Shown: one piece after another, positions 3,001-36,410 of the stretch
Numbering within the stretch: the stretch's first letter is position 1
How the letters are laid out: each line of letters starts with the position of its first letter
Assembly: GCA_037076615.1 (NCBI GenBank)
Contig: AP029158.1
Span: forward strand, 197,470 to 261,469
Reading direction: 5' to 3'
Length of the DNA stretch: 64,000 nt
Origin: Candidatus Parcubacteria bacterium
GTDB lineage: Bacteria; Patescibacteriota; Patescibacteriia; Patescibacteriales; UBA12465
Translations under genes and position numbers: made by a program
Notes under the pieces: model-generated
What the model saw: the letters and a program-made list of their open reading frames with translations, nothing else
Told to the model about the DNA's origin: nothing
Database searches by the model: none

Positions 3001-5166
3001 AACGTCGGCATAGGCACCACTACTCCCGCGGCGAAACTGGCTGTTTCTGGTGGCAATGTTTTAATTAACGATGCTGTCATTACTTCCGGCACGCCTAAGG
3101 CCGCGATTACCAAAGAATATTTAGATTCTTCTTTAAGTGCCGCCGTCAGCCCAATCACCCTCTGGGGGGGAACTGCCAGTGGCAGTATTTGGAATTTGAA
3201 TGAAGGTAATGTGGGGATTGGAATAGAAAACCCAACAGCACCTCTGCATATAATAAAAACTGGTGGATCTACGAGTGATTCGAATACAGCTCTTATTTTA
3301 GATTATGAATCAGACCTAACGACTACTATTGGGGGTGGTACCGCCATAGAATTTAGAGGTAAATCTTCAGGCGGGAATGTTGCTAATTGGCAGCAAGCCA
3401 GAATTAGGACAGTTGGTTATACTGGCAATAATTCTCATGCTTTAGCTTTTGATGTACGTCCTTCAGCTGTTTATCCATTAACTGAAGCGGTAAGAATAAG
3501 TTCTAGTGGCTCCGTCGGCATCGGCACCACCGCCCCTGCTTACAAATTAGACGTCTCTGGCACTGGTAGTTTTTCTCAACCAGTTATTGTTGGCACTCCG
3601 ACTGCGACTAATCACGCCACTACTAAATCTTATGTGGATTCAACTGCAACGGCTGCCGCCGGTGGTGGCGTGGGGGCAGGTACTTCTGGGCAAACCTTAC
3701 GGCACAATGGCACCTCTTGGGTTGCTAATTCTAATTTATATAATAATGGTACGAATGTTGGGATTGGGACAACTAATCCGTCAGAGAAACTTTATGTTTC
3801 AGGAATTATTAAGGCGACGGAAGGTTTAGGTGTGGCGAATCAATTTCTTTCAGGTGGTGTATATTCTTATTCAAATGGAATTTTAGTAAATACTGATATT
3901 GCAGTTTCTGGTAATTCAATGATAGAGCTTTATATTGAGGGAAACTCTTACTCTGGCTGGGGCGCTATCGGGGGAAAAGTTACAACCTATAACTATGGAA
4001 GTGGTGGTTATTTTTATAATAGTAGTTATGTGGCCCATGGGATAACTCCTGCCGAGGTTAGAGTTTTCCATCATGATGGATTTGTAAAATTTTGGATGCC
4101 TCAGACAAGCTCTTTCCAAACATATAGATTTAGATTGGGCACGCATAGCGGTTCAAACAAAATAACTAGTATTCAAAATTTGGCCATGCCCACGGAAGGC
4201 GTGACAAATGAGGTTGTTTTAACGCCTAAAACGGTTATTAATAATTCCGTCGGTATCGGCACCGCTGCCCCCGCCTACACTTTAGATATCTCTGGCACTA
4301 GTCGTTTTACTCAACCAGTTCTTGTTGGCACACCGACAGCTGCTGGTCATGCCACTACTAAGAGTTATGTGGATTCTACTATTGGTGGCGGTTCTGGCTC
4401 CACAGTTGGTTATTGGACCATGAATGGAACCAATATCAGTAATTCAAATACGGGGAATGTGGGAATTGGGACGACGGCGCCATGGGGCAAACTTTCGGTT
4501 GTTGGCGGAGATGTAAGCTTAACAGGAAGCACCAATACAAGAATACTTGTTGGAGATTCTCTAAGTAATGATGATTATGGGCAACTTCAATGGAATACAA
4601 CAGGAAATTTTCTATCCTTAGAGTCAAGTGGAACATCGAGACCATTGGCTTTACAACAAGACGGCGGCAACGTCGGCATCGGTACCACCACCCCTGGTTA
4701 CAAACTAGACGTTTCTGGTACTGGTCGCTTTACCCAACCAGTTCTTGTTGGTACCCCAACCGCTGATGGTCATGCTACCACTAAATCTTATGTAGATTCT
4801 ACTATTGGTGGCGGTTCTGGCTCCACAGTTGGTTATTGGACAATGAATGGCACTAATATCAGTAATTCAAATACAGGGAATGTGGGGGTGGGGACGACGA
4901 ATCCGGCTACAACATTAGATATAGTTTCTGCAAACGCAAATCCATTAAGGATATATAGAAATTCGGGAAACTCAAGTGTACAAATTCAAAATAATGCCAC
5001 AAGTGGTTATGTTGGATTAAATAATTCTAATAATATTGCTTTAGGTTTTTCACTTGATCAAACAAGTGCTCCGTTTCAAGTTACATCAACTGGCAACGTC
5101 GGTATCGGCACCGCTGCCCCCGCCTACACTTTAGATATCTCTGGCACTAGTCGTTTTACTCAACCA
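1..5166 (+). repeat. Two tandem copies of a 2583-bp (861-codon) unit inside the giant CDS
   Basis: Shadow ORFs recur at an exact +2583 offset (339->2922, 1004->3587, 1333->3916, 1853->4436). By-eye comparison of the lines found one difference (c at 35 vs g at 2618). Copy 1 starts at the window edge, so the array may continue upstream. Confidence 0.9.
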
Positions 5167-8100
5167 GTTCTTGTTGGCACCCCAACTGCTGCTGATCATG
5201 CGACTACCAAATCTTATGTTGATTCCGCCGCTGGAGGCGGAATTCCCGCGGCGGCTAACGGGAGCACTTTAAGAGCTAGTGGTACCTCTTGGGTGGCGAG
5301 TACCAATCTCTATAACGATGGTAGCCAAATTGGTATTGGCACTGACAAACCCGGTTCGCTTTTGACCTTGGCTAATGACGGCTGGCTATCAGCCCGCAGT
5401 GGTGGCGATATGTCGATAGTCAATATGTTCAAAGTTAACACCAACAATCAAATTGAAGTTGGCGCGCCGCTTTTAATTGGTCCTTTGGAGTTCGCTCCCG
5501 ACAGCGGCCTAGTCAGTCTAGTGGATATGCCCGTGACTTCCGCCTCCCCAGTTGGAACTCCTCAAGGCTATGTCATGAAAATTGATGGCAATAATTTACT
5601 TTCTCTTTACTCTGAGTCTAATGGCTCGGGCGGTGCTCAGAACATGCGCCTAGGGGTAAACACCGCGACTCCGGCTTATAGCTTAGATGTTGCTGGCACT
5701 GGTCGTTTCACTCAGCCTCTTATTGTTGGCACCCCAACCGCCGCTGATCATGCGACCACCAAATCTTATGTTGACTCGGCTATCGGGGGTGGCTCTGGAT
5801 CTACGGTCGGATACTGGACTCTAAACGGCACCAATCTTTACACATCTTCAACGGATTTTAAGGTGGGTATAGGCACTGCAACACCAAATACAAAATTATC
5901 TGTATTGGGCAATGATGATTCTGGCGGGCTAGGTGTTTTGGAGTTACTAACTACCGGTGGCACTAGCCTAAGAATGGGAGGTAATACTACTTATAGTTGG
6001 ATTCAAAGCCATAGTTCTAAACCTCTATACATTAATCAGCTTGGTAATAACACTATTATCAATCCAGGTGGTGGTAATGTGGGGATTGGTACGGCGGCAC
6101 CTGGAGCAAAATTACAGCTGGGTGATAGTTCCGGCACTAATATTAAATATAGTTTAGGGGCTGCAACAACTCAGTATTATTGGGGGTCTGCTGAAAGAAT
6201 TGGTATTTCCATTGATACAAACAATGCTTGGTCTTTAGGCGCGACCACTGCCGGTGCTGGCGGTATAAGATTAGGAAATGGTGCGAACTATTCATATTTA
6301 GCTGGCGCTGGGACAAATTTATTGCTTAATCCAACAGTTGGTTCTGTTGGTATCGGTACCGGTTCACCAGCCTACAAACTTGACGTTGCCGGCACCGGCC
6401 GCTTTACCCAGCCCGTTATTGTTGGCACTCCGACTGCAGCCGATCACGCAACAACCAAATCTTATGTGGATTCAACCGCTACCGCTGCCGCTGGTGGTGG
6501 CGTGGGGGCAGGTACTTCTGGGCAAACTTTGCGGCACAACGGCACCTCTTGGGTAGCTAATTCTGTTTTATATAATAATGGGACGAATGTGGGGATTGGG
6601 ACGGCTAGTCCGAGCCAGAAGCTATCTGTAGAATCGGCAGGTGCACAATTAAGAGTTAGAGCTGTTGGCAGTGTTGGAACTTCAACAGTTGAAACTGTGC
6701 GACTTGTAATTGGAACAAACATAGACGGTTCTTTTCCGAATACTGCAGGCAATCGATTATCATTTGCTACACGCTGGACAGATTCCACTGAGTTTACTAC
6801 GGCTGCTGTTGAGTCGCATCATGATAATTCATGGGGCGGGGGATTGTCTTTCTTAACTAAGCCAGACGATGGAAATCCTTCTGGCGAAATGTTAACTAGG
6901 ATGGTTATAAATCATTTAGGCAACGTTGGCATCGGCACCACCGCCCCTGCTTATAATTTAGACGTTGCCGGCACTAGCCGCTTCACTCAACCCGTTATTG
7001 TTGGTACTCCAACAGCCACTAATCACGCCACTACTAAATCTTATGTAGATTCAACTGCTACGGCCGCTGCCGGTGGTGGCGTGGGGGTAGGTACTTCTGG
7101 GCAAACCTTACGGCACAATGGCACCTCTTGGGTGGCTAATTCTAATCTTTATAATAATGGTACGAATGTGGGGGTTGGAACGACGGTACCCGGAGCGAAT
7201 CTGCACGTTGCCGATGCTGTTGTTTCCAATAAGCACATAGATACACAAGCTTCACAAATAGTGGAAGATACAGAGGGGAGATTTCAATTTATTGCTTCCA
7301 ACTCTGGTACCGGTGGCTCAGGATTTACTTTTACAAATGCTCCTGCATCTGGAAATAACACGCATTGGAATATAAACCATGTCGGGTCTAGCATAGGTGA
7401 CGGACTTTTGTTTAGATACTCTCAGACAACGGCGACGGGGCAGGATAGTTATGTTGCTTCGGGGTTTGTGAATAGTTTGTATCTTAAAGAGAATGGCAAC
7501 GTCGGCATCGGCACCACCGCCCCTGCTTACAAATTAGACGTCTCTGGCACTGGTAGTTTTTCTCAACCAGTTATTGTTGGCACTCCGACTGCGACTAATC
7601 ACGCCACTACTAAATCTTATGTGGATTCAACTGCAACGGCTGCCGCCGGTGGTGGCGTGGGGGCAGGTACTTCTGGGCAAACCTTACGGCACAATGGCAC
7701 CTCTTGGGTTGCTAATTCTAATTTATATAATAATGGTACGAATGTTGGGATTGGGACAACTAATCCGTCAGAGAAACTTTATGTTTCAGGAATTATTAAG
7801 GCGACGGAAGGTTTAGGTGTGGCGAATCAATTTCTTTCAGGTGGTGTATATTCTTATTCAAATGGAATTTTAGTAAATACTGATATTGCAGTTTCTGGTA
7901 ATTCAATGATAGAGCTTTATATTGAGGGAAACTCTTACTCTGGCTGGGGCGCTATCGGGGGAAAAGTTACAACCTATAACTATGGAAGTGGTGGTTATTT
8001 TTATAATAGTAGTTATGTGGCCCATGGGATAACTCCTGCCGAGGTTAGAGTTTTCCATCATGATGGATTTGTAAAATTTTGGATGCCTCAGACAAGCTCT

Positions 8101-8988
8101 TTCCAAACATATAGATTTAGATTGGGCACGCATAGCGGTTCAAACAAAATAACTAGTATTCAAAATTTGGCCATGCCCACGGAAGGCGTGACAAATGAGG
8201 TTGTTTTAACGCCTAAAACGGTTATTAATAATTCCGTCGGTATCGGCACCGCTGCCCCCGCCTACACTTTAGATATCTCTGGCACTAGTCGTTTCACCCA
8301 GCCAGTTATTGTCGGCACCCCAACTCTTGCTGGACACGCTACTACTAAATCTTATGTAGACTCTGCCGTTAGTGGTGGCTCCGGCTCCACTGTCGGTTAT
8401 TGGGCTCTAAACGGCACCAGTCTTTACGCTTCTTCAACCACTTTAAACGTCGGCATTGGTACCACCAACCCCGGCACCTATAAATTAAATGTTGCCGGTT
8501 CGGCGTATATTAGCGGCGGGCTATCCTTGGGTGCATCCAACCTGACAACGACTGGTACGGTCTCTGCCAACAAAATTACCGTTGGCACGATTGACCCGCT
8601 CTATAATTTAAAGGGAGTTAACTATTCAACCTTTGCCGCTTCCATTGTCGGTGGCGTTAAAGAAGAAACTACCGGCCGGGTCATGATTGATCAGGCGGCA
8701 GACGGCGAATACCAGAAAACCCTTGATTTTAAGCGGCAAACAGTTGGCAGCGATTTGTGGGTGTGGTATAATGTAGTTGATTTTAGTAAAGATAATTTAG
8801 AGGTCTTACTCACTCCTTACGGCAAGCCAGCCAATGTTTATTATACTGTTTCTGGAGAAAAGCTTACTCTCCATTCCAATGTTCCAGTTGAAGTTTCTTA
8901 TCGCTTAATCGCCAAGCGCTTTGATTGGAAAGACTGGCCGACTAAGGCTAAAGACCAAGCTGAGACACCAAATTTTATTTTAAAATAA
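1..8988 (+). CDS. Giant repetitive tail-fibre-like surface protein, 5' end cut by the window edge (>=2995 aa)
   Basis: Frame 1 is open from nt 1 (VLVGTPTAAGHATTKSYVDS...), so the ATG at 52 is internal. There are at least 14 copies of a ~45-aa module G[NS]VGIGTxxPxxxLD[VI]xGTxxF[TS]QPV[ILV]VGTPTAxxHATTKSYVDS, separated by variable 100-250 aa inserts. The same module occurs in the S74-chaperone fibre protein at 11226-13151. Stop TAA at 8986-8988. Confidence 0.85.
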   Translation, partial: VLVGTPTAAGHATTKSYVDSTIGGGSGSTVGYWTMNGTNISNSNTGNVGIGTTTPSEKLDVVGSGNFSGTITSKNASIDGNYYALTNTFATFHHKNLTGAGQYALRQSVNGDTYLNAAANRSVWFNINNATKVIIDTNGNVGIGTTTPAAKLAVSGGNVLINDAVITSGTPKAAITKEYLDSSLSAAVSPITLWGGTASGSIWNLNEGNVGIGIENPTAPLHIIKTGGSTSDSNTALILDYESDLTTTIGGGTAIEFRGKSSGGNVANWQQARIRTVGYTGNNSHALAFDVRPSAVYPLTEAVRISSSGSVGIGTTAPAYKLDVSGTGSFSQPVIVGTPTATNHATTKSYVDSTATAAAGGGVGAGTSGQTLRHNGTSWVANSNLYNNGTNVGIGTTNPSEKLYVSGIIKATEGLGVANQFLSGGVYSYSNGILVNTDIAVSGNSMIELYIEGNSYSGWGAIGGKVTTYNYGSGGYFYNSSYVAHGITPAEVRVFHHDGFVKFWMPQTSSFQTYRFRLGTHSGSNKITSIQNLAMPTEGVTNEVVLTPKTVINNSVGIGTAAPAYTLDISGTSRFTQPVLVGTPTAAGHATTKSYVDSTIGGGSGSTVGYWTMNGTNISNSNTGNVGIGTTAPWGKLSVVGGDVSLTGSTNTRILVGDSLSNDDYGQLQWNTTGNFLSLESSGTSRPLALQQDGGNVGIGTTTPGYKLDVSGTGRFTQPVLVGTPTADGHATTKSYVDSTIGGGSGSTVGYWTMNGTNISNSNTGNVGVGTTNPATTLDIVSANANPLRIYRNSGNSSVQIQNNATSGYVGLNNSNNIALGFSLDQTSAPFQVTSTGNVGIGTAAPAYTLDISGTSRFTQPVLVGTPTAAGHATTKSYVDSTIGGGSGSTVGYWTMNGTNISNSNTGNVGIGTTTPSEKLDVVGSGNFSGTITSKNASIDGNYYALTNTFATFHHKNLTGAGQYALRQSVNGDTYLNAAANRSVWFNINNATKVIIDTNGNVGIGTTTPAAKLAVSGGNVLINDAVITSGTPKAAITKEYLDSSLSAAVSPITLWGGTASGSIWNLNEGNVGIGIENPTAPLHIIKTGGSTSDSNTALILDYESDLTTTIGGGTAIEFRGKSSGGNVANWQQARIRTVGYTGNNSHALAFDVRPSAVYPLTEAVRISSSGSVGIGTTAPAYKLDVSGTGSFSQPVIVGTPTATNHATTKSYVDSTATAAAGGGVGAGTSGQTLRHNGTSWVANSNLYNNGTNVGIGTTNPSEKLYVSGIIKATEGLGVANQFLSGGVYSYSNGILVNTDIAVSGNSMIELYIEGNSYSGWGAIGGKVTTYNYGSGGYFYNSSYVAHGITPAEVRVFHHDGFVKFWMPQTSSFQTYRFRLGTHSGSNKITSIQNLAMPTEGVTNEVVLTPKTVINNSVGIGTAAPAYTLDISGTSRFTQPVLVGTPTAAGHATTKSYVDSTIGGGSGSTVGYWTMNGTNISNSNTGNVGIGTTAPWGKLSVVGGDVSLTGSTNTRILVGDSLSNDDYGQLQWNTTGNFLSLESSGTSRPLALQQDGGNVGIGTTTPGYKLDVSGTGRFTQPVLVGTPTADGHATTKSYVDSTIGGGSGSTVGYWTMNGTNISNSNTGNVGVGTTNPATTLDIVSANANPLRIYRNSGNSSVQIQNNATSGYVGLNNSNNIALGFSLDQTSAPFQVTSTGNVGIGTAAPAYTLDISGTSRFTQPVLVGTPTAADHATTKSYVDSAAGGGIPAAANGSTLRASGTSWVASTNLYNDGSQIGIGTDKPGSLLTLANDGWLSARSGGDMSIVNMFKVNTNNQIEVGAPLLIGPLEFAPDSGLVSLVDMPVTSASPVGTPQGYVMKIDGNNLLSLYSESNGSGGAQNMRLGVNTATPAYSLDVAGTGRFTQPLIVGTPTAADHATTKSYVDSAIGGGSGSTVGYWTLNGTNLYTSSTDFKVGIGTATPNTKLSVLGNDDSGGLGVLELLTTGGTSLRMGGNTTYSWIQSHSSKPLYINQLGNNTIINPGGGNVGIGTAAPGAKLQLGDSSGTNIKYSLGAATTQYYWGSAERIGISIDTNNAWSLGATTAGAGGIRLGNGANYSYLAGAGTNLLLNPTVGSVGIGTGSPAYKLDVAGTGRFTQPVIVGTPTAADHATTKSYVDSTATAAAGGGVGAGTSGQTLRHNGTSWVANSVLYNNGTNVGIGTASPSQKLSVESAGAQLRVRAVGSVGTSTVETVRLVIGTNIDGSFPNTAGNRLSFATRWTDSTEFTTAAVESHHDNSWGGGLSFLTKPDDGNPSGEMLTRMVINHLGNVGIGTTAPAYNLDVAGTSRFTQPVIVGTPTATNHATTKSYVDSTATAAAGGGVGVGTSGQTLRHNGTSWVANSNLYNNGTNVGVGTTVPGANLHVADAVVSNKHIDTQASQIVEDTEGRFQFIASNSGTGGSGFTFTNAPASGNNTHWNINHVGSSIGDGLLFRYSQTTATGQDSYVASGFVNSLYLKENGNVGIGTTAPAYKLDVSGTGSFSQPVIVGTPTATNHATTKSYVDSTATAAAGGGVGAGTSGQTLRHNGTSWVANSNLYNNGTNVGIGTTNPSEKLYVSGIIKATEGLGVANQFLSGGVYSYSNGILVNTDIAVSGNSMIELYIEGNSYSGWGAIGGKVTTYNYGSGGYFYNSSYVAHGITPAEVRVFHHDGFVKFWMPQTSSFQTYRFRLGTHSGSNKITSIQNLAMPTEGVTNEVVLTPKTVINNSVGIGTAAPAYTLDISGTSRFTQPVIVGTPTLAGHATTKSYVDSAVSGGSGSTVGYWALNGTSLYASSTTLNVGIGTTNPGTYKLNVAGSAYISGGLSLGASNLTTTGTVSANKITVGTIDPLYNLKGVNYSTFAASIVGGVKEETTGRVMIDQAADGEYQKTLDFKRQTVGSDLWVWYNVVDFSKDNLEVLLTPYGKPANVYYTVSGEKLTLHSNVPVEVSYRLIAKRFDWKDWPTKAKDQAETPNFILK
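7501..8293 (+). repeat. Third, partial copy (~793 bp) of the repeat unit segment 931-1723 / 3514-4306
   Basis: Offsets +6570 and +3987 (ORFs 1004->7574, 1333->7903). The lines I compared were identical. Identity begins at gtcggcatcggcaccaccgcccctgcttac and ends just after ggcactagtcgttt. Confidence 0.85.
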
Positions 8989-11158: not shown

Positions 11159-11225
11159 TCTCTTCTACCCACTTTTATTGAAAAGTGGTATTATATAGGT
11201 GTGTTTAAAAAATAATTTTGACATT

Positions 11226-13151
11226 ATGAAACGGAAAAGATTTTTTAAAAAAGTCTGGCCTCTTGCGGCAGTGGCCATTTTTTTGGGTCTAATGGTTGTT
11301 TTTATAGAGCCATTATTTGCTAAAGATATTATTATTGCTCCCGGTTCCACTGATCGGGTTGGTATCGGGACAGCGGCTGCCCCCCAGTATATGCTTGATA
11401 TTGCCGGATCGGGACGTTTTACTGGCGATTTACTTATTCCTACTCCAACGGCTTCTGTTGGGATTGGGACAGCGGACCCAAGCGTTAATTTGCAGATTGG
11501 AAGTGATGCCATTAATCCAACAATTCTACTTGAAAGTACAAGTAGTGGAGATAACGCAACTGATCAATCTGCGGGAATAGAATTTGGTGAATCGCCTTCC
11601 GCTCGCGGTAGTATTTGGTATACCGGCGATGGCAATATGCATATCGGCATGAATAATAGAACAAGAGAGCATATGCGTTTTTCATACAGCGCTAATAGTG
11701 CTTGGCTCTATGGGAATTTATATTTAAATGGAGCGAGTAATAATACTTATTTCCCTGGTTCTGGTATTTGGAATTCTTCTGGCAGCGTTGGCATCGGCAC
11801 CACCGCTCCCGCCTACAAACTAGATGTTTCTGGCACTGGCCGATTTACAGGAGCTTTAATTGTTCCAACCCCCTCCGCTTCTAGCCATGCGGCTACTAAG
11901 GGTTATGTTGATTCAGTTGCCGGCACCGGCGGCATTTCCGGATCAGGAACAACTAATTACATTCCTAAATGGTCTAGTGCGTCCGGTCTAACAAATTCTC
12001 GAATTAGTGATACTGGAACTGGAAATGTAGTTGTTAGTGCCGTCTTACAAGCCACTTCTTTCTCAGGTAATGCTACTTCTGCTACTAACGCAGATTATGC
12101 TACCAACGCAGGTTATGCGGCTTCTGCTGGTACTGCCGGATCTCTTTCAAGTACTTCCTTATGCGGTGTCGGCTCTTACGCTCGTGGTATAACGACTTCA
12201 GGCGCAGCTAGTGGTTGCACCGCTGTCCCTACTGGCGGCCATGGTGATGGCACTAATTGTTCTACTGGCTATTTTGCCACCGGCGTTGATGCTTCCGGTA
12301 ATGCTCAAGGTTGTGCTAATTCCATCGCTAATTCTACTAACGCAGATTATGCTACCAACGCAGGTTATGCTACCAACGCAGGTTATGCAGCTTCTGCTGG
12401 TACTGCTGGAGCCCTTTCAAGCACCTCTTTGTGCAGTTCTGGCTACTATGCTCGTGGTATAACTACTTCGGGCACAGCCAGCGGCTGCACCGCCGTCCCT
12501 ACTGGTGGCCATGGCAATGGTACTAATTGTTCTGCCGGTTATTATGCTCGTGGTGTCGATGCTTCCGGTAATGCTGAAGATTGCACCGCGGTCCCTAGTG
12601 GTGGCCATGGCGATGGTACTAATTGTACTGCTGGTACTTATCCTCTGGGTGTTGACGCTTCCGGTAATGTTCAAAGTTGTACTGACACTGTTAATTATGC
12701 TAATTATGCGATCAGTTTAGCTGCTAACGGATCTAACTGCTCTGCCGGTTCTTTTCCCCTCGGTGTCGATGCTAATGGAGCCGCTGAGAGTTGTACCTCT
12801 TTAACTAACGGTGGTTTTAGTCCTGCCTTCGGCACAGTAACAGCAACTTCATATCTATATTCATCCGACGCTAAATTAAAAACCAACATCAAAACGATTA
12901 AAAAACCCTTAGAAAAAATCACCGCTCTTAGGGGCGTCACCTTTAAGTGGAAAGATTCAAAAGAACCGAGCATGGGGTTAATCGCCCAAGAAGTGGAAAA
13001 AGTTTTCCCCGAATTAGTGGAAACCAGTGGTCAATATAAAGCGGTTGAATATGGTAATTTAGTCGCCCCGTTAATTGAAGCCGTAAAGGCGCAACAGGTA
13101 CAAATTGAAGCGCTGGAGGCCCGAATTGCCGACTTGGAATCCAACCGCTAA
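11226..13151 (+). CDS. Tail-fibre-like protein with Cys-rich repeats and a C-terminal peptidase-S74 intramolecular chaperone domain
   Basis: Start taken at MKRKRFFKKVW followed by a TM/signal segment. It carries the GSVGIGTTAPAYKLDVSGTGRFTGALIVPTPSASSHAATKGYVDS module. There are about 8 repeats of C-x2-G-x-[YF]-x2-G-[IV]-x2-SG-x-A-x2-C. The C-terminus SSDAKLKTNIKTIKKPLEKITALRGVTFKWKD...GLIAQEVEKVFPELV...VEYGNLVAPLIEAVKAQQ matches the endosialidase/tail-fibre chaperone (Pfam Peptidase_S74) signature. Confidence 0.85.
   Translation: MKRKRFFKKVWPLAAVAIFLGLMVVFIEPLFAKDIIIAPGSTDRVGIGTAAAPQYMLDIAGSGRFTGDLLIPTPTASVGIGTADPSVNLQIGSDAINPTILLESTSSGDNATDQSAGIEFGESPSARGSIWYTGDGNMHIGMNNRTREHMRFSYSANSAWLYGNLYLNGASNNTYFPGSGIWNSSGSVGIGTTAPAYKLDVSGTGRFTGALIVPTPSASSHAATKGYVDSVAGTGGISGSGTTNYIPKWSSASGLTNSRISDTGTGNVVVSAVLQATSFSGNATSATNADYATNAGYAASAGTAGSLSSTSLCGVGSYARGITTSGAASGCTAVPTGGHGDGTNCSTGYFATGVDASGNAQGCANSIANSTNADYATNAGYATNAGYAASAGTAGALSSTSLCSSGYYARGITTSGTASGCTAVPTGGHGNGTNCSAGYYARGVDASGNAEDCTAVPSGGHGDGTNCTAGTYPLGVDASGNVQSCTDTVNYANYAISLAANGSNCSAGSFPLGVDANGAAESCTSLTNGGFSPAFGTVTATSYLYSSDAKLKTNIKTIKKPLEKITALRGVTFKWKDSKEPSMGLIAQEVEKVFPELVETSGQYKAVEYGNLVAPLIEAVKAQQVQIEALEARIADLESNR
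12084..12590 (+). repeat. Internal ~255-bp diverged tandem duplication encoding the NADYATNAGYA...Cys-repeat block
   Basis: actaacgcagattatgctaccaacgcaggttatgc recurs at ~12084 and ~12339. The following ~250 bp are clearly homologous but diverged. Confidence 0.7.
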
Positions 13152-13707: not shown

Positions 13708-15855
<2,148 letters not shown>

Positions 15856-15875: not shown

Positions 15876-17162
15876 ATGACTCCCAAAATTAAAACCGTCA
15901 GTGCCCGAGAAATTCTAGATAGTGGCGGCTGGCCCACGGTTGAAGTAACAATTACTTTAAATACCGGTGAGCGGGCCAGAGCGAGTGCACCCACGAGCTC
16001 TTTACACAGCCATTTTGAGGCGGCCGAGAAGAGAGATGGCGATAGCCAGCGTTATTTTGGTCGCGGCGTTCTTTTGGCCGTCCAGGTGGTTAATGAGCAA
16101 ATCGCTCCGGCTTTAGCTGGACGGTCGCCCTTAGAGCAGGAAAAAATTGATCAAATTTTAATTGATTTAGATGGCACCTCACAAAAAGAAAAAATCGGCG
16201 CGCCCGCTCTGTTAGCAGTTTCACTGGCGGCAGCGAAAGTGGCGGCCTTAACTAAAAAACAAGAGCTTTACGAATATTTACACGAAATTTATTTTAAGGG
16301 CAGTGACATAAAATTGCCGACGCCGCTACTAACAATGTTTAACGGTGGTGGTTTTGCTGATACCAATTTAGATTTTCAGGAATACTTATTAACCTTTTCT
16401 CCTAGCGCTCCTCGCTTTCAGAAAAGCGGGCAGCCCGTAGCTGAGATGGTAAGAGCGGGTGCCGAAACTTATCACCGGCTCGGACAAATTTTAGATGCGG
16501 CCGGTTATGATGTTGATACCGGTTCACAAGGCGGCTACGCCCCGGATATGGATTCCAGTATCCAAGCTTTAGAGTTGATTAGCGCCGCCGCTTTAGCCGC
16601 TGGCTATGAAAATGAATTCCGGCTGGGAGTTGATATTGGTTCCGGCTCTCTTTTTGACGAAGCCGAGCAAAAATATATTTTCTCCTTAGGAGCTGATTAT
16701 TTAAGCAGTGCCAATTTAATTGGCCTCTACCACAGTTGGCTGAGCCGCTTTCCGATTGTTTATTTAGAAGACCCGGCCGCCGCCACCGATCTTGATGCTT
16801 GGCGTCAGGTGACCCAGGAGTTAGGTGGGAAAACTTTGTTAGCTGGTAATGATTTTTTTGCCACTAACACTAAGCGTTTACGGACCGCTCTCAAAGATCA
16901 TTTAGGAAATGCACTCGTGATCGTCCCTGCTCAAGCCGGAACCCTAACAGAAACAATGGAGTGTTTGCAGTTGGCTAAACGACATAATTATCGGATTATT
17001 TTTAGTCAACGCCGCGGCGAAACTAACGATGATTCTTTAGTGGATTTAGCAGTTGCCAGTGGTGCGGATTATTTAAAGGCTGGCGCTCCCACTCGTGGTG
17101 AACGTGTTAGTAAATGGAATCGCCTACTTCTTATTGAATCTAATTTAAGGACGAAATCCTAA
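15876..17162 (+). CDS. Enolase-family protein with substituted catalytic residues (probable non-canonical or inactive enolase)
   Basis: Full-length collinear similarity to enolase (REILDSGGWPTVEV..., YLEDP, GTLTET, GETND, KAGAPTRGERVSKWNRLL). Catalytic positions differ; see findings. Confidence 0.85.
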   Translation: MTPKIKTVSAREILDSGGWPTVEVTITLNTGERARASAPTSSLHSHFEAAEKRDGDSQRYFGRGVLLAVQVVNEQIAPALAGRSPLEQEKIDQILIDLDGTSQKEKIGAPALLAVSLAAAKVAALTKKQELYEYLHEIYFKGSDIKLPTPLLTMFNGGGFADTNLDFQEYLLTFSPSAPRFQKSGQPVAEMVRAGAETYHRLGQILDAAGYDVDTGSQGGYAPDMDSSIQALELISAAALAAGYENEFRLGVDIGSGSLFDEAEQKYIFSLGADYLSSANLIGLYHSWLSRFPIVYLEDPAAATDLDAWRQVTQELGGKTLLAGNDFFATNTKRLRTALKDHLGNALVIVPAQAGTLTETMECLQLAKRHNYRIIFSQRRGETNDDSLVDLAVASGADYLKAGAPTRGERVSKWNRLLLIESNLRTKS

Positions 17163-17169
17163 AATTTTT

Positions 17170-18036
17170 ATGCCTGATTTAAATTCACAAATAGCACCCG
17201 CCTCGGAGTCGAAAAAAAAGGAGACTAGCGGACCAGTAGTTTTATTGTTGCTGGATTCTTGGGGGGTCGCGCCTTTAAGTGAAGGGAACGCTTTTAACGG
17301 TCTAAATTTAAAAAATCTTAATAGGTTTTTAGAGAATTATCCGGTCGCTGTTTTATCGGCATCGGGTGAGCCGGGGCAGCGCTACCAGATTTTAGGAGCC
17401 GGGGGTCAATTAACAAAAATAATTTCTGAAGCTGGTCTAAAGCAAAGACGTTTAAGCGAAAGCGAAGCTGCGCCTTTTTTAGAAGGTTATTTTATCAATG
17501 GCCGTGCTGAATTATTGGCGGGCGAAAGTCGAGAGGTGATTTCTTCTCCCGGCGGCGACCGCCAAGAAAACCTGGAAGAGGCTAGTGCGGCCTTGGTAAA
17601 AAAATTAATTAGTCTTATTAAAAAAGGGGAAGAAGATTTTATCGTTCTTAGTTTAAGTTATTTAGATTTAGTGGCTCAGACGGGAGACTGGGAAAAAACT
17701 AGGAGTGCCTTAAAGACTTATGATCTGTGGGTGGGTAAAATTGGTGACGCCCTTCGTAAATACCGCGGCACCTTAATCCTTAGTTCAACTTACGGCCGCG
17801 TCGAGACTCTCCGGGATTCTTTTTCGGAGGTCGCGCAAACGGATATTACTGATAAGCCAATCCCTTTTTTAATTGTGGGGCAAAATTATACCGGCCAGAG
17901 TTTAGGCACGGATTTTTTTTCCGAAGATTTAAGCTTGCTGCCTTTGGCTGGTGATCTAAGCGTGGTCGCTCCGACAATTTTAGATATCTTAAAAATAAAA
18001 ATTCCGAAAAACTTCCCGAGTAAAAGTTTACTTTAA
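17170..18036 (+). CDS. Truncated, degenerate cofactor-independent phosphoglycerate mutase (iPGM)-like protein
   Basis: N-terminus PVVLLLLDSWGV...GNAF...YPVAVLSASGEPGQ and C-terminus LILSSTYGRVE...LSVVAPTILDILKIKIPKNFPSKSLL align to the GpmI ends. It is 288 aa against ~510 aa for GpmI. The transferase domain and the phosphoserine segment are missing. Confidence 0.65.
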   Translation: MPDLNSQIAPASESKKKETSGPVVLLLLDSWGVAPLSEGNAFNGLNLKNLNRFLENYPVAVLSASGEPGQRYQILGAGGQLTKIISEAGLKQRRLSESEAAPFLEGYFINGRAELLAGESREVISSPGGDRQENLEEASAALVKKLISLIKKGEEDFIVLSLSYLDLVAQTGDWEKTRSALKTYDLWVGKIGDALRKYRGTLILSSTYGRVETLRDSFSEVAQTDITDKPIPFLIVGQNYTGQSLGTDFFSEDLSLLPLAGDLSVVAPTILDILKIKIPKNFPSKSLL

Positions 18037-20852: not shown

Positions 20853-21584
20853 ATGAAAAAATTAATTTTAGCAAATTGGAAAATGCAGCTCTCTTTTAAA
20901 GAGAGTGAAAAGTTAGCTAAAGATTACCGGGTAAAAATTAAAAACTCTGTTGCCGAACTTGGCGTGTTGCCGGATTTTAGCGCCTTAGAAACAGTTTGCC
21001 GCCATTTGCCGTCTAAAGTTTTTAAATTGGGAGCGCAGGATGTCGCTCCTTATATAAAAGGTGCTTATACCGGCGAGGTTAGTGCTGCTTCACTTAAACA
21101 GCTAGGGGCCAAATATGTCTTAGTCGGTCACAGTGAGCGTCGCCAAGAGTTTAAAGAAAATTCTCCTCTACTACGTTTAAAAGTTCAAGCTGCTCTTGAG
21201 GCCGGTTTAGTTCCGATTTTATGTATTGGTGAAAACGCCACTCAGAAAAAAAATGGCCAAACAGTCGCAGTTTTAAGACGACAATTAGAGGAAGTATTAT
21301 TTGGTTTAGTGATAGAAAAAGATAATGCTTTAGTGGTTGCCTATGAGCCTTTATGGGCAATCGGCAGTGGTCAACCCCTAGAGGCTTCTCAGGCGGAAGC
21401 AATTCAGGTAATGATTAAGGGGGTTTTAGCTAATTTAATCGGTCGCTTTCCCCGCGTTATTTATGGCGGTAGCGTCAACGCCAAAAATGCTGCGGACTTT
21501 TTAGAATGGCCTAATATAGACGGGCTTTTAGTTGGCGGCGCTAGTCTAAGAGCTGATGAATTTAAAAAAATTATTGGTGCTTAA
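20853..21584 (+). CDS. tpiA: Triose-phosphate isomerase (catalytic residues intact)
   Basis: ANWKM (Asn/Lys), VGHSERR (His), YEPLWAIGSG (Glu), YGGSV. Confidence 0.93.
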   Translation: MKKLILANWKMQLSFKESEKLAKDYRVKIKNSVAELGVLPDFSALETVCRHLPSKVFKLGAQDVAPYIKGAYTGEVSAASLKQLGAKYVLVGHSERRQEFKENSPLLRLKVQAALEAGLVPILCIGENATQKKNGQTVAVLRRQLEEVLFGLVIEKDNALVVAYEPLWAIGSGQPLEASQAEAIQVMIKGVLANLIGRFPRVIYGGSVNAKNAADFLEWPNIDGLLVGGASLRADEFKKIIGA

Positions 21585-28765: not shown

Positions 28766-28915
28766 CGTTGATTAAATCGTGTAAAGTGACCCAGAAGCCG
28801 AGCTTTTTGAGGTTCATTCCCAAAGAGGTAAAATACCTCGCGGGGAATAGAAAAAGGGAAGCTTTTAATAAGGCGGCTGGTTGCTTAAGACCAGCTGTTT
28901 TATTTAGCTAAAAGT

Positions 28916-31913
28916 ATGAGTCAAATAATAAAAATTTTTATTGACAAGGTAAATGGTCAGTTTGAAACTGGTCATGCCCGTGAGCACTCTTATCGCCCGG
29001 CTTTAGAAGAACTATTTAAAGAGATTACTGGCCTGAAAGTTATTAATGAGCCTAAAAGAAGTGAGTATGGTGCACCAGACTTTGTTTTTTTAAATAAAAA
29101 CATTGTAACTGCCCATGCTGAAGCTAAGGATTTACAGGTGTCGTTAAAAGAAATTGAAAAAAGTGATCAAATGATTAGGTATTATGGATACTCAAATTTG
29201 ATTTTAACTAATTGCTTGGAATTTAGATTTTATAAAAGCGGGCAAGCTTATGGCAATCCGATTATTATTGCTGAATTAAAAAATAATGCAATTTCGGTTG
29301 ATGAAACAAAATTTCAACTTCTTGAAGATACGATAAAAGATTTTATTAAGGACTCTAAAGAGCCTATTAGATCTGGTATTCATTTAGCTAGAGTTATGGC
29401 CGGTAAAGCCCGTCGTATTAGGGATAGCATTAAAAATTATTTGACCCTGGGAGATGATAGTACAAATCAGGAATTATTGGCTGTTTATGAAGTTATAAAA
29501 AAATTATTATTAGCCGATTTAGATAGAGAAAAGTTTGCTGACATGTATGCCCAGACTTTAGTGTATGGTCTTTTTGTTGCGCGTTATTACGACAAAACTT
29601 CAGAAACTTTTTCTAGACATGAGGCTCGTGATTTAGTTCCTGCCTCTAACCCTTTTCTTCGCCATTTTTTTGACCATATCGCCGGATCATCTTTTGACCC
29701 AAGAATTGAAATGATTGTTGATGAGTTATGTGAAGAATTTGCTCACGCTGATGTTCAAGCGATTGTTCATAATTATTATAAAGTTGATAAAGATGATAGC
29801 CGTGATCCTATCATTCATTTTTATGAAGACTTTTTGCAGGAGTATGACTCCAATGAACGAAAAAAGATGGGAGTTTTTTATACACCACTGCCAGTCGTTC
29901 GTTTTATCGTCCGTTCTATTGATGATATTTTAAAAAAAGAATTTGGTTTATTACGAGGTTTGGCAGATACTTCTAAAATTGAAGTTAAGCGAGAAAGTCA
30001 GGGTAAAAAATATAAAGATCAAATACATAAAGTACAAGTGCTTGACCCTGCCACTGGAACGGGTACATTCTTAAATGAAGTTATTTTACAAGTTAAGAAG
30101 TCTTTTTCTGGTCAAGAGGGAAGATGGAACAATTATGTTAATGAAGATTTATTACCACGGCTCCACGGCTTTGAATTAATGATGGCTTCTTATACTATTG
30201 CTCACTTAAAACTTTCTACTACAATTAAAGAATCTGGAGCAGAAATAAAAAATCAACGCCTCGGTGTTTATTTAACTAATTCTTTGGAAAAAGGATTGGT
30301 AGAGGAGAGAAATCTCTTTTCTGGTTTAGGGTTTGGCAAGGCTATTACCGATGAATCTATAGAAGCTAGTAGAATAAAAAATGATTTACCGATTATGGTC
30401 GTGCTTGGCAACCCGCCATATTCTGGGGAGTCAAATAATTCACATTATATTGCAAATGATGTTTATAAAATTGAGCCTAATGGAGGTAAGCTGCAAGAAC
30501 GCAATTCCAAATGGTTAAATGACGATTATGTAAAATTCATTCATTTTGCAGAAAGTATGATTGAAAAATCTGGCGAAGGAATTGTTGCCATGATTACCGC
30601 TCATGGTTATCTTGATAACCCAACTTTTAGAGGGATGCGATTTCATTTAACCAAAACATTTGATCAAATATATATTATTGATTTGCATGGGAATTCAAAA
30701 AAGAAAGAGGTCTCTCCAGATGGCGGTAAGGACGAGAATGTATTTAATATTATGCAGGGAGTGTCTATTATTTTGGCGATAAAAAAGAAAGGAAATAAAA
30801 ATCGTGTTGCTGATGTTTTTTATTCCGAGTTATGGGGGAAAAGAATTAAAAAGTTTGAGTCTCTTTCTGGCGAAATAAAGTATCAAAAAATTTCTCTAGA
30901 TCAAAAATATTATTTTTTTGTACCAAAAAATATTGAAGGGAAAATTGAATATGAAAAGGGATTTTCTATCGGAGATTTGTTTGTTCAAAATAGTGTTGGC
31001 GTTGTTACCGCAAAAGACTCTGTGTTTATTGCGGACAGCGAAAAAAGATTAAAGGATCAAATAAATAAGTATTTTGAAGATAACAAAATTAATGAAATAT
31101 TTAACGAGGATAAAATAAAAAAAATTTCTTATAGACCATTGGATAACAAAATAATATATTGGGATACAAAATTACTTGAACGTTCGAGAGAAAGGTTGAT
31201 GAAACATTTTTTTAAGGAAAATGTTGGTTTAGTTTTAGTTAGACAATTCAAATCTGGGGGAAAATTATTGTCATGTCTTAATCTCTAAATTAATAGTTGA
31301 GTCTACTTTTATATCAAATAAGACAAGTGAGATTGGATATCTATTTCCTGTCTACTTGTATAATGATATTGGCATAAAAATTTCTAACCTAAAAAAAGAA
31401 ATTGTTGATGATATAGAAAAAATAGTTGGCAAAACAACTCCAGAGAATATTTTAGATTATATTTATGCTGTTTTATATTCACCAACTTATCGTGAAAAAT
31501 ATAAAGAATTTTTAAAAATTGATTTTCCGAGAGCACCTTATCCAGAAAGTAAAGAGCAATTTGAATCATTAGTTTCTTTTGGTAAAGAGCTTCGTGGACT
31601 TCATCTTTTAGAATCATCAAAGTTAAATAGTTTTATTACCACTTACCCTGAGGTTGGCGACGATATTATTGAAAAGAAATTTCCAGTATATAAAGATGAA
31701 AAAGTTTATATTAATGACATCCAGTATTTTGGAAACGTGCCACTAATTGCTTGGAATTTTTATATTGGCGGTTATCAGCCGGCTCAAAAATGGTTAAAAG
31801 ATAGGCGTGAGAGAAAATTATTCAATGAAGATATTGAACACTATCAAAAAATGATTACTGTACTTATGGAGACTGATAGAATAATGAAGGAGATTGATAA
31901 ATTTTTTAAGTAA
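28916..31913 (+). pseudogene. Type IIG (MmeI/type-ISP-C-terminal-like) fused endonuclease / N6-adenine methyltransferase, split by a frameshift at a G5 tract
   Basis: N-terminal PD...EAK nuclease-like motif (GAPDFVF at 29075, AHAEAKD at 29120). MTase motif I VLDPATGTGTFL and motif IV NPPY at 30410-30421. The downstream ORF carries YAVLYSPTYREKYKEFLKIDFPRAPYP. The +1 frame is open from 31239 and reads ...ENYCHVLISKLIVESTFISNKTSEIGYLFPVYLYNDIG straight into ORF 31356-31913. The shift maps to tctGGGGGaaaa at 31256-31260. Confidence 0.8.
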
Positions 31914-33258: not shown

Positions 33259-33450
33259 AATCCTTAAATTTACGTATTACAAGCACATTAATGACGCAAC
33301 TCACGAAGGAAGTCCAGGTCCCAGCTGTTGGTAACTATACTTTACTCTTGACCTTATTTATATTATTATATATAATATTATTAACGTTAAGGGTTAATAA
33401 AAATATTATGAAATCCCCTCGTTTTACAAATTTAATATCTTATGTAAAAA

Positions 33451-33786
33451 ATGGAAGTTCAGTATACCAAAAAAGCGTTAAAAAAAATGTGTCCGGATTG
33501 GCAATGCATCCGCTCTTTTGGTGATAATATTGGACGGAAAATATTATTGCGTATAACGCAGTTTAAGGCAGCAAGTTGCTTGGATGATTTAAGAAACGCC
33601 CCAGGATTACATGAAGAATTAAAAGAAAATCGTAAGACACAGCTAAGTTGCCGTTTAACTGCTAATTGGAGATTAATATATCGTCCATTTGGTAATTGGG
33701 AAGAATATCTTGAAAACGGAAGTTTATCTTGGAAGAAGGTGGATAAAATAGAAATAATTGAGGCAGAGGATTATCATAATAATTAA
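33451..33786 (+). CDS. higB: HigB-like (RelE/ParE superfamily) toxin
   Basis: The layout MEVQYTKKALKKM...IGRKILLRITQFKAASCLDDLRNAPGLHEELKENRKTQLSCRLTANWRLIYRPF matches the HigB 'plasmid maintenance system killer' family. It sits directly upstream of a HigA-type HTH. Confidence 0.7.
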   Translation: MEVQYTKKALKKMCPDWQCIRSFGDNIGRKILLRITQFKAASCLDDLRNAPGLHEELKENRKTQLSCRLTANWRLIYRPFGNWEEYLENGSLSWKKVDKIEIIEAEDYHNN

Positions 33787-33812
33787 TATATAAATTTTTT
33801 AATTTTAAATAT

Positions 33813-34901: not shown

Positions 34902-34903
34902 TT

Positions 34904-35506: not shown

Positions 35507-35581
35507 TGTCTCATTTGTCTCATTTTCCATTAAATGGAACACCGTAAAACCCCTTTTATAGTGTCTCATTTGTCCCATTTC
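35502..35581 (+). repeat. Two 25-bp direct repeats (tatagtgtctcatttgtcYcattt) 55 bp apart
   Basis: Copies at 35502-35526 and 35557-35581 differ at one base. The first overlaps the stop codon of the 200-aa gene. A ccattaaatgg palindrome lies between them. Confidence 0.75.
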
Positions 35582-35682
35582 TGATAGAATATAGTCATAC
35601 CCACAAGCCGTTGGAAAGTACTCAGAAACCATCGGAAATCCCTTGAAATTTATGTTCTAAACCCGAACGGGGTGCGGTAAAT

Positions 35683-35710
35683 AAAAACATCCCAAACTTG
35701 GGATGTTTTT
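35683..35710. terminator. Strong bidirectional hairpin terminator
   Basis: aaaacatccca-aact-tgggatgtttt, flanked by A-rich and T-rich runs. Confidence 0.65.
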
Positions 35711-36394: not shown

Positions 36395-36410
36395 AAATAA
36401 AATAAAAAAA

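Follow-up and report, generated by a model that had tools for sequence, protein, structure and literature searches.

How can an enolase gene stay full length after most of the residues needed for catalysis have been replaced, and what is its product kept for? These questions are raised by a gene in the window that we analysed, a stretch of 64 kb of Parcubacteria DNA. The gene (15876..17162, + strand; all coordinates are those of the window) starts with ATG and encodes a protein of 428 aa, here called Eno*, which is labelled phosphopyruvate hydratase in public MAGs. A sequence-only reading of this DNA had described a full-length enolase homologue with a largely replaced active site, in which the canonical chemistry should be lost or altered and which would be retained for another function.

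Fold and active-site residues of Eno*

The family assignment was borne out by profile searches. Eno* matches both the Enolase_N domain (PF03952, 6e-43, profile positions 1-131 of 131) and the Enolase_C TIM-barrel (PF00113, 1.1e-64, profile positions 3-283 of 296) over its full length. Its best solved relative is the enolase of B. subtilis (4a3r; 6.4e-95, aligned 3-424), and identity to solved enolases is 38-42%. The AF2 model (pLDDT 82.9, pTM 0.87) matches solved enolases in Foldseek with TM scores of 0.88-0.90, i.e., the enolase fold is preserved in the predicted structure. The protein scores 401 bits with TIGR01060 (cut-off 300), vs 555 bits for a canonical neighbour enolase. A sequencing or assembly artefact is excluded because the identical protein occurs on 18 contigs, in at least 8 independent sequencing runs, and is deposited under BFD24892.1 (locus tag JST_000201). 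Samples with the exact gene include DRR520373/4, SRR11702762, and SRR36594268.

We considered several further peculiarities of the protein and rejected them. Low AF2 confidence at residues 41-60, 159-164, and 214-222 could have been read as disordered active-site loops, a reading that we dropped because a canonical control, P0108, modelled with the same 20-sequence alignment, shows low values at its L2 and acid loops as well (158-162 and 205-210); the L1 region alone is clearly worse in Eno* (pLDDT 53-58 vs 71-89). There is no shift in pI or charge toward nucleic-acid binding (median pI 5.0-5.1 in the variants vs 5.3 in canonical relatives). The dimer interface does not appear altered, R8 and E20 being conserved. 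Yeast R414 is uninformative for this interface because it is not conserved in canonical CPR enolases either.

We mapped the active site (yeast numbering) with HMMER pairwise alignments and with a MAFFT alignment of 122 sequences including yeast Eno1, and the two agree. At the end of barrel strand 6, Val350 (codon 16923-16925) takes the place of the general base Lys345; it opens the segment V350-P351-A352 (16923..16931, +), equivalent to K345-V346-N347, in which N347 is also replaced by Ala. The general acid Glu211 is Gln218, within S217-Q218 (16524..16529, +; yeast D210-E211, now GSQGG), and this Gln is invariant across the sub-clade of the window. At metal site I, Asp246 and Glu295 stay (D253 and E298) and the third ligand, Asp320, is N325 (16848..16850, +; GDD to GND), which leaves two of three ligands. 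Loop L1 is rewritten throughout (PSGASTG to PTSSLHS), with L43 (16002..16004, +) in the place of Ser39, the second Mg2+ ligand. The phosphate-binding His159 of loop L2 is F160 (16353..16355, +). In Q378-R379-R380 (17007..17015, +; yeast H373-R374-S375), His373 is lost to Gln (codon 17007-17009), the phosphate-binding Arg is kept, and an Arg is gained at position 375. Outside these segments, H43 is F47. The substrate-anchoring residues Gln167, Glu168, Arg374, and Lys396 are all present (Q168, E169, R379, and K401), as are D296 (D299) and D321 (D326). Finally, an insertion of about 9 residues, R180-V188 (RFQKSGQPV; 16413..16439, +), lies in the beta-to-alpha loop that follows the E168 strand and is specific to the clade described below; its F181 is invariant in 47/47 variant sequences, and the position is gapped in 67/74 canonical relatives.

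The changes S39L, H159F, E211Q, K345V, H373Q, and D320N, and the retention of Glu168, Asp246, Glu295, and Lys396, had all been proposed by the sequence-only reading and survive formal alignment, which did not put Lys, Glu, or His back at the replaced catalytic positions. That reading did not include S375R, N347A, H43F, the complete rewriting of L1, or the insertion.

The yeast enolase variants K345A, E168Q, and E211Q reportedly keep a residual activity of about 1e-5 (Poyner et al. 1996). In the M. tuberculosis enzyme, Ala at the equivalents of K345, E211, E168, or D246 yields a non-functional enolase, the S39A equivalent leaves about 5% of the activity, and PEP binding persists in E163A and E204A (PMC10619443). 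These published mutants of equivalent positions support the suggestion that canonical 2-PG/PEP chemistry would be lost or altered in Eno*. Dehydration of 2-PG by the protein would be very unlikely because five such essential or important changes are combined in a single sequence.

Gene order and the partner Met'

The ancestral order in related genomes is PGK, enolase, and a short iPGM-like gene. Neighbourhoods of +/-10 kb around each gene show that the flanks Met'-DUF212-GyrB...TIM-TPR are common to Eno* and to canonical enolase loci. Eno* is the enolase at the ancestral position, a positional orthologue of the canonical enzyme. The difference lies upstream. PGK directly precedes the enolase in every locus that has K345 and a short Met', where the upstream sequence suffices, vs 0/12 distinct variant loci, all of which have LigA before the gene. 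In the window, this NAD-dependent DNA ligase (13756..15855, +) stands directly upstream of Eno*, at the place of PGK in genomes with a canonical enolase. When contigs were compared by length, those of the best 120 PGK relatives (to about 59% identity) matched 0/46 variant contigs (eight of them over 200 kb) vs 10/74 canonical ones, a weak comparison given this identity limit and given that PGK adjoins the enolase only in canonical genomes.

A consensus scan revealed a terminator-like hairpin just before LigA (13712..13737, +; an 11-bp stem followed by a T run) and reported none comparably strong between LigA, Eno*, and Met'. This lack of a comparable hairpin between the three genes suggests a single LigA-Eno*-Met' transcript, in which case LigA probably belongs to the transcription unit of the Eno*-Met' pair. 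Farther downstream, the triosephosphate isomerase TIM (20853..21584, +) has intact catalytic motifs (ANWKMQ, GHSERR, and AYEPLWAIGSG) and provides a control for the genomic context: not every glycolytic gene at the locus is degenerate.

The conserved position bears on whether Eno* could be a moonlighting paralogue, i.e., a copy specialised for the RNA degradosome or for surface or host binding, with a canonical enolase encoded elsewhere in the genome. Moonlighting enolases are well documented, e.g., in complexes with RNase E (the Foldseek hits include 5ohg and 2fym) and in the degradosome-like network of B. subtilis (PMC8152036). Lepidoptera have divergent paralogues of enolase in which key residues are altered (PMC5237310). 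However, a gene at the ancestral position with conserved flanks is the original copy and not a duplicate. No second enolase is present in the window, which covers 64 kb of the 717-kb genome, or in any of the +/-10-kb loci. The best 80 of the 314 related loci include no second enolase locus from any of the 7 variant GTDB assemblies, which is weak evidence because the search patterns are specific to the clade. Moreover, duplicates are rarely retained in genomes this small (about 0.7-1 Mb). We thus regard a moonlighting paralogue as improbable.

Met' (17170..18036, +; 288 aa) starts 7 nt past the stop codon of Eno* and is the remnant of a cofactor-independent phosphoglycerate mutase (iPGM) reduced to its phosphatase domain. 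It matches PF01676 alone; the transferase domain (PF06415), residues ~77-310 of 1ejj, has been excised. Among the nucleophile and Mn ligands (D12, D403, H407, D444, H445, H462, and Ser62), it keeps only D12 and D403, since S62, H407, D444, H445, and H462 are P, Q, T, Y, and I. The iPGM model TIGR01307 gives 102 bits for a cut-off of 331. On all these counts, Met' departs from a genuine iPGM. Yet this degenerate protein is under selection (dN/dS 0.07-0.24), and every Falkowbacteria-type locus examined has it as the conserved partner of the enolase. A fully canonical enolase persists in many genomes whose iPGM is a dead remnant, and therefore the death of iPGM alone does not force the loss of enolase. 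Once the GyrB distance is removed, the rates of Eno and Met' co-vary in canonical genomes (partial r 0.44, Mantel P 0.0005), where the adjacent control DUF212 gives a partial r of 0.017. DUF212 also co-varies with Eno in the small set of variants (r 0.64), and the source of the covariation between Eno and Met' could be shared expression or shared local history. It is from adjacency and rate covariation that we infer an association between Eno* and Met'.

Distribution of the variants and selection on them

K345 is present in 74/74 canonical relatives and absent from 46/46 of the closest database clusters (56-94% identity), which have I, V, T, or S instead. The K345-less sequences are monophyletic (bootstrap 100/100), comprise at least 47 clusters, and are nested within Falkowbacteria-type CPR enolases. 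K345 is lost across the clade; S39, H373, H159, D320, and E211 are lost in subsets of it, and the sub-clade of the window shows the heaviest loss. Several positions vary widely in the clade: 159 (H/Y/F/S), 320 (D/N/S/G), 345 (I/V/T/S), 373 (S/H/Q/A/G), and 375 (R/S/G/A/P). Loop L1 is hypervariable and deleted in some members. E168, D246, E295, D296, R374, and K396 are kept throughout. Genomes with a short Met' include separate cases of K345E (L023, L027, L037, and L048) and of E211L (L024, L036, L039, and L082), which are independent catalytic-site losses in sister lineages; the complete chromosome CP066698.1 carries the K345E variant. Among 50%-identity representatives, a search that did not separate out the K345-less clade, about one-fifth of the 150 nearest carry two or more changes at 12 core sites. 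Our literature searches yielded neither an account of CPR enolases that lack K345 nor a paper on the source genome.

This distribution also informs the idea that Eno* is still an enolase, in which substitute residues, e.g., R375 or K396 as base, would sustain useful catalysis. Q167, E168, R374, and K396 remain in the protein with two of three metal ligands, most members of the clade combine the K345 loss with S375R, and the basal-looking P0020 group departs from the canonical state at the mapped sites essentially only at 345 and 347. On the other hand, the window protein combines changes at five positions that are each independently essential or important, a single Ala at the equivalent of K345 or of E211 already makes the enzyme non-functional (PMC10619443), and the catalytic positions show drift throughout the clade. 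The cluster has lost PGK, and the adjoining iPGM is a remnant. Judging from the residues, continued enolase activity would have a very small probability.

The rates of substitution show that Eno* is under strong purifying selection, like housekeeping genes, and is not decaying. Between the window and L008, its omega is 0.079 at a dS of 0.43, and the controls give 0.059 (LigA), 0.050 (GyrB), and 0.10 (TIM); between L001 and L010, the omega of Eno* is 0.031. At matched GyrB divergence, the identity of Eno* is 0.61-0.82 vs 0.67-0.83 for the canonical enolase, and outside the catalytic positions Eno* evolves about 20% faster than active enolases. Averaged over columns, the entropy is 0.888 for the variant clade and 0.890 for canonical relatives, with 103 and 96 invariant columns, respectively. 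One could imagine a functionless relic on its way to a pseudogene after the loss of lower glycolysis, and the stepwise erosion of the catalytic residues and the missing PGK would agree with this. But the dN/dS of 0.03-0.08, the same as in LigA, GyrB, and TIM, contradicts gene decay, overall conservation is on par with active relatives, and the reading frame is full length and intact in all 47 clusters and 12 loci at identities down to 56%. We give this explanation next to no weight. These dN/dS values, the loss across a whole clade, and the near-normal overall rate support the suggestion of the sequence-only reading that the protein has some other function for which it is kept.

The catalytic positions behave differently from the rest. 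In canonical relatives, the 12 core catalytic positions have a mean entropy of 0.168, below that of random columns (P=0.0003); in the variant clade, the mean is 0.713, not distinguishable from random columns (P=0.38). The core positions of the wider clade are thus as variable as an average column, which means that catalysis is no longer under constraint. Within the sub-clade of the window, all 12 are invariant (P=0.0016) despite an overall divergence of 31%.

This invariance is among the arguments for a neofunctionalised enzyme. Eno* might turn over another carboxylate or phospho-compound, using a metal site of D246, E295, and N320 together with E168, K396, and the R374/R375 pair, and with the hydrophobic pocket (L43, F160, and V350) and the loop insertion as a new specificity cap. 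The many fixed clade-specific residues, the insertion with its invariant Phe on the catalytic face, the strong purifying selection, and the near-isosteric character of E211Q, D320N, and H373Q are in line with such an enzyme. The enolase superfamily has a precedent for Asn as third metal ligand in glucarate dehydratase. However, a conserved new active site should not vary freely across the wider K345-less clade as these pocket positions do. A column comparison of the variant clade revealed no Lys, His, Cys, or Tyr that has become conserved at a known active-site position or is placed to act as base; two residues specific to the clade, K at position 48 and Y at position 169 (yeast numbering), lie at sites that are not known to belong to the active site of enolase structures. 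The neighbouring genes point to no new pathway. The match to MR_MLE_C (PF13378) has 20.1 bits, under the cut-off of 29.4, and no NCBIfam model of the other enolase-superfamily subgroups (MR, MLE, and acid-sugar dehydratases) reaches its cut-off on Eno*. A new enzyme of this kind seems unlikely on these sequence grounds, if less so than a moonlighting paralogue.

Proposed role and comparison with known systems

On balance, we consider it more likely than not that Eno* is the in-place descendant of the glycolytic enolase of a Falkowbacteria-type CPR bacterium, that it has lost its dehydratase activity and is selected for a role without that chemistry. Its close homology to active enzymes with essential residues replaced, the selection acting on it, and its persistence across a clade are the marks of a putative pseudoenzyme. 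The loss of K345 coincides with the removal of PGK from the ancestral PGK-enolase-iPGM' cluster, and it took place in a lineage that already carried the truncated, ligand-less iPGM remnant. The supply of 3-PG and 2-PG through this cluster would then have stopped, making catalysis dispensable, and the body of the enolase would have been kept for another task that it already had. Most likely, Eno* would serve, without catalysis, as a structural or binding partner in concert with Met', which would be co-transcribed and co-evolves with it, the pair being perhaps the fossil of a PGM-enolase assembly. In the sub-clade of the window, the pocket would have been neutralised, with K396, R374, and the newly gained R375 offsetting the acids E168, D246, and E295, and it would have become more hydrophobic (L43, F160, and V350); it is now invariant. 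Such a pocket may be self-stabilised or bind a small ligand, rather than being an active site. A new function in catalysis or ligand binding would equally agree with the acids, R374, and K396 kept across the clade and with the invariant remodelled pocket of the sub-clade. More speculatively, it is possible that Eno* and Met' are a co-evolving dead pair exapted into an essential non-glycolytic module of CPR episymbionts (a structural or regulatory complex, or a scaffold for metabolite or RNA turnover), or that the pocket of Eno* has acquired a new reaction or senses a ligand.

These results matter for annotation. Eno* passes the enolase equivalog model, and therefore metabolic reconstructions would credit these CPR/Patescibacteria with an enolase step that is very probably absent; checking the residues at K345 and E211 would remedy this. 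The locus also offers a natural series in which a glycolytic gene cluster sheds catalysis step by step, its proteins remaining under strong purifying selection throughout. The series starts with the full iPGM of related Parcubacteria, continues with the truncated, ligand-less remnant in Falkowbacteria-type genomes, and ends with the variant clade, also without the cluster PGK and K345, and the sub-clade of the window, without most of the active site. Eno* would be a rare prokaryotic case of a dead enolase that is orthologous, not paralogous, and it makes testable which non-catalytic job constrains the enolase sequence so tightly in minimal genomes.

Eno* has the two-domain fold of the canonical bacterial enolase (EC 4.2.1.11; TIGR01060; 4a3r and the E. 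coli 1e9i), but it lacks K345, E211, D320, S39, H159, and H373 and gains R375 and the 9-residue insertion. It occupies the genomic position of the canonical enolase of related CPR genomes, but without PGK upstream. The closest comparison is with Falkowbacteria-type enolases that retain K345 (e.g., P0108 in GCA_005795825.1, L005), which are 53-56% identical to Eno*, have the same flanks including the downstream iPGM remnant, and share its lineage motifs (DTNLDFQE, GETNDD, and DLAVA.GADY). Unlike Eno*, they have the full catalytic set SHEEDEDKHRSK and PGK directly upstream, and their core positions are conserved far above average (the entropy of 0.168 given above).

The M. tuberculosis mutants K335A, E204A, E163A, D241A, and S42A hit the same positions as in Eno* and fold normally (PMC10619443). 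By analogy, such engineered inactive enolases may be a model for a folded, possibly ligand-binding Eno* without turnover; they are single laboratory mutants, whereas Eno* combines several natural changes selected across a clade. The Bombyx mori proteins BmEno2 and BmEnoC resemble Eno* in having altered metal- or substrate-binding residues and a lineage-restricted distribution, and they are expressed despite the altered key residues (PMC5237310). However, they are extra paralogues beside a canonical enzyme, and Eno* is a positional orthologue in a reduced bacterial genome where no second copy was seen. In Arabidopsis, PGAM and enolase (with pyruvate kinase in some assemblies) associate physically, and an inactive PGAM complemented a structural phenotype, the co-localisation of organelles (PMC7481185). 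This eukaryotic assembly consists of active enzymes, whereas Eno* and Met' would both be natural dead versions, whose association is suggested by their genes.

Identity and relatives of the enolase homologue

Eno*, the 428-residue protein encoded at 15876-17162 (+), belongs by homology and fold to the enolase family. The Pfam domains Enolase_N (6e-43) and Enolase_C (1.1e-64) span its whole length, its top solved relative is the B. subtilis enolase 4a3r (6.4e-95), ahead of about 60 further enolases, and its AlphaFold2 model (mean pLDDT 82.9, pTM 0.87) matches solved enolases (TM 0.88-0.90). A canonical control model showed that loop confidence is not informative about the active-site loops of Eno*, and we found no shift in its pI. 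The protein passes TIGR01060 (401 bits, cut-off 300) and is therefore labelled enolase in public genomes, where, depending on the source, it appears as "hypothetical protein JST_000201", "enolase", or "phosphopyruvate hydratase". Its database entry is BFD24892.1, on a 717,294-bp contig of "Candidatus Parcubacteria bacterium". In total, 18 contigs, which come from at least 8 independent sequencing runs, encode exactly this protein.

We mapped its residues with HMMER pairwise alignments and with a 122-sequence MAFFT alignment including yeast Eno1. The two mappings agree, and they give the same residues as the by-eye alignment of the sequence-only reading, whose substitutions and retentions are thus all upheld. 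The changed sites (yeast numbering, with the Eno* codon in brackets) are S39 (L43), H159 (F160), D210/E211 (S217/Q218), D320 (N325), K345 (V350), N347 (A352), H373 (Q378), and S375 (R380); Q167, E168, D246, E295, D296, D321, R374, and K396 are unchanged. The by-eye list lacked S375R, H43F, the rewriting of the L1 loop, and an insertion of about nine residues (R180-V188) after the E168 strand, which is specific to the K345-less clade that includes Eno* (the variant clade).

A search of 5.8 billion proteins showed that the closest 46 clusters (56-94% identity) all lack K345, with I, V, T, or S in its place, and that canonical Falkowbacteria-type CPR enolases, their catalytic set complete, make up the list from hit 47 on. 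The sequence-only reading had proposed a phylogeny and a dN/dS analysis of such variants. In our neighbour-joining tree, Eno* belongs to a single K345-less CPR clade (100/100 bootstrap), within which its own sub-clade (P0001-P0005) is nested on a longer branch (100/100). The erosion of the active site across this clade is a mosaic. One group (P0020-type) differs from canonical enolase at essentially only 345 and 347 among the mapped sites, most members have additional changes at S39, H373, and S375, and H159 (Y/F) and D320 (N/S/G) were lost independently in several sub-lineages; E211 is missing only from the window's sub-clade and from a few isolated sequences. Among the nearest 150 enolase representatives (50%-identity clusters, P0121-P0270), about one-fifth differ at two or more of the 12 core catalytic positions, with a recurrent E168D and H373A combination (P0179, P0193, P0206, P0212, P0242, P0270). 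Metagenomic lineages may commonly harbour degenerate or re-tooled enolases.

Selective constraint and catalysis

Between the window and the related locus L008 (dS 0.43, unsaturated), the Nei-Gojobori dN/dS of Eno* is 0.079, and those of the controls are 0.059 (the DNA ligase LigA), 0.050 (GyrB), 0.077 (DUF212), and 0.10 (triosephosphate isomerase, TIM). Between L001 and L010, that of Eno* is 0.031. The range of 0.031-0.079 indicates purifying selection. At matched GyrB divergence, identities are 0.61, 0.61, 0.70, and 0.82 for Eno* versus 0.67, 0.69, 0.73, and 0.83 for canonical enolase; Eno* therefore evolves about 20% faster. Mean column entropy is 0.888 in the variant clade versus 0.890 in canonical relatives, with 103 versus 96 invariant columns. 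At the 12 core catalytic positions, entropy is 0.168 in canonical relatives, far under random column sets (P=0.0003), and 0.713 in the variant clade, like random columns (P=0.38). Constraint has been lost in the variant clade specifically at the active site.

Poyner et al. in 1996 reportedly found about 1e-5 residual activity in yeast enolase K345A, E168Q, and E211Q. In M. tuberculosis enolase, alanine at the equivalent of K345, E211, E168, or D246 gives a non-functional enzyme, the equivalent of S39A retains about 5% activity, and E163A and E204A still bind PEP in crystals (PMC10619443). Eno* falls short of a working phosphopyruvate hydratase on five residue-level criteria. It is very unlikely, judging from its residues, to dehydrate 2-PG, because changes are combined at five such positions. 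The combined changes and the mycobacterial mutants argue for the earlier claim that canonical chemistry would be lost or heavily altered. Eno* shows the sequence-level marks of a pseudoenzyme: dead catalytic residues, purifying selection, and clade-wide persistence.

In the window's sub-clade, all 12 core positions are invariant, in new identities (P=0.0016), which leaves room for a pocket-dependent role there. This is compatible with the main rival to a joint role with the neighbouring protein Met', namely that Eno* has a new enzymatic or ligand-sensing function. Its pocket keeps three acids (E168, D246, E295) and has three bases (K396, R374, and the new R375), with L, F, and V added. Since the acids are matched by the bases, the pocket could be charge-neutral with neither Mg2+ nor substrate present.

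Erosion of a glycolytic gene cluster

We compared 90 enolase loci within +/-10 kb of each gene, including 80 (the best 80 of 314) on one-genome-per-species GTDB contigs. The canonical order is PDZ protein, phosphoglycerate kinase (PGK), enolase, short "Metalloenzyme" protein, DUF212 (-), GyrB (-), epimerase, TIM, and TPR protein. Variant loci keep all the downstream genes and have LigA in place of PGK, which is absent upstream in 12 of 12 distinct variant loci and present in every K345 locus with the short Metalloenzyme gene and sufficient upstream sequence. We saw neither a second enolase nor a relocated PGK in variant genomes, a weak negative given the +/-10 kb and the best 80 of 314 GTDB loci. 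TIM is intact in the window (motifs NWK, GHSERR, YEPLWAIGSG). By its flanking genes, Eno* is the positional orthologue of canonical enolase.

The Metalloenzyme protein of the window, Met' (17170-18036 (+), 288 aa), is a remnant of the cofactor-independent phosphoglycerate mutase (iPGM) consisting of its phosphatase domain. A clean excision has removed the transferase domain (about residues 77-310 of 1ejj), and replacements at S62, H407, D444, H445, and H462 leave only D12 and D403; against the iPGM equivalog model the protein scores 102 bits, below the cut-off of 331. The family is nevertheless under purifying selection (dN/dS 0.07-0.24). One member is named "hypothetical protein" at NCBI. In the Falkowbacteria-type genomes that we examined, remnants of about 285-315 aa directly follow enolase, canonical enolases included (L005:11256-12158, L006:11268-12185, L007:11254-12174, and most of L018-L090). 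In the loci of more distant Parcubacteria, the iPGM is full-length (about 535 aa) and retains all its catalytic residues. Because remnants already adjoin canonical enolases while distant Parcubacteria carry the full enzyme, the series we propose runs from full iPGM to remnant, then to the exit of PGK from the cluster with the loss of K345, and finally, in the window's sub-clade, to an active site that is mostly gone.

Other genomes with short Met' changed independently: K345E (L023, on the complete 977-kb Falkowbacteria chromosome CP066698.1, L027, L037, L048), with S39A and, in 3/4 of the loci, H373Q; and E211L (L024, L036, L039, L082), with E shifted to position 210. A third group (L031, L033, L053, L063, L064) has a rewritten L1 loop (S39K/Q, E44G) and S375G, keeps K345, and neighbours the variant clade in the tree with no bootstrap support. 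PGK is upstream in all three. Many public CPR MAGs with these loci (L012, L014, L016, L019, and others; binchicken and SRP co-assemblies) are titled "uncultured Gammaproteobacteria bacterium", which is misleading because gene content and synteny show Patescibacteria.

Elsewhere in the window, a low-GC island at about 28900-36400 (0.31-0.37, versus about 0.43) is probably an integrated mobile element; it holds a Type ISP restriction-modification gene split in two ORFs (28916-31288 and 31356-31913), a large serine recombinase (31906-33258 (-)), and an HTH and IrrE/M78 peptidase gene (33813-34901). A giant ORF (52-8988, 2978 aa) and a 650-aa ORF ending in a Peptidase_S74 (endosialidase intramolecular chaperone) domain (11199-13151) probably encode episymbiont surface or fibre proteins; L003 and L010 have similar large S74-bearing proteins upstream of LigA. 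An ADP-forming acetyl-CoA synthetase (39860-41950; CoA_binding, Succ_CoA_lig, and ATP-grasp_5 domains), a fermentative enzyme that yields ATP, is also present. A dead enolase would raise the question of where this organism obtains its pyruvate or acetyl-CoA.

A possible joint role and known divergent enolases

The best reading is that Eno* is a non-catalytic enolase body, which would have lost catalysis and would act jointly with Met'. The two genes are neighbours in every Falkowbacteria-type locus that we examined; 7 nt separate them in the window, and in L001, L003, and L010 they share a 14-nt overlap. Just ahead of LigA, at 13712-13737, lies a strong terminator-like hairpin (11-bp GC-rich stem, then a T run). 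A LigA-Eno*-Met' transcription unit probably begins at this point; no hairpin of comparable strength was found between these genes. With GyrB distance regressed out, enolase and Met' distances correlate overall (partial r 0.62) and in canonical genomes only (0.44, Mantel P 0.0005; 0.017 for the equally adjacent DUF212). This covariation is suggestive only, because DUF212 distances also co-vary with enolase in the 10 variant genomes.

A eukaryotic PGAM-enolase assembly has a catalysis-independent role (PMC7481185), and animals have divergent enolases with altered key residues (PMC5237310). In the searchable literature we found no earlier description of a bacterial clade of dead enolases that are orthologues and stand beside a dead iPGM remnant; such a clade appears to be undescribed. 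The animal proteins are paralogues (PMC5237310), whereas the clade of Eno* is orthologous, bacterial, and paired with a dead iPGM remnant.
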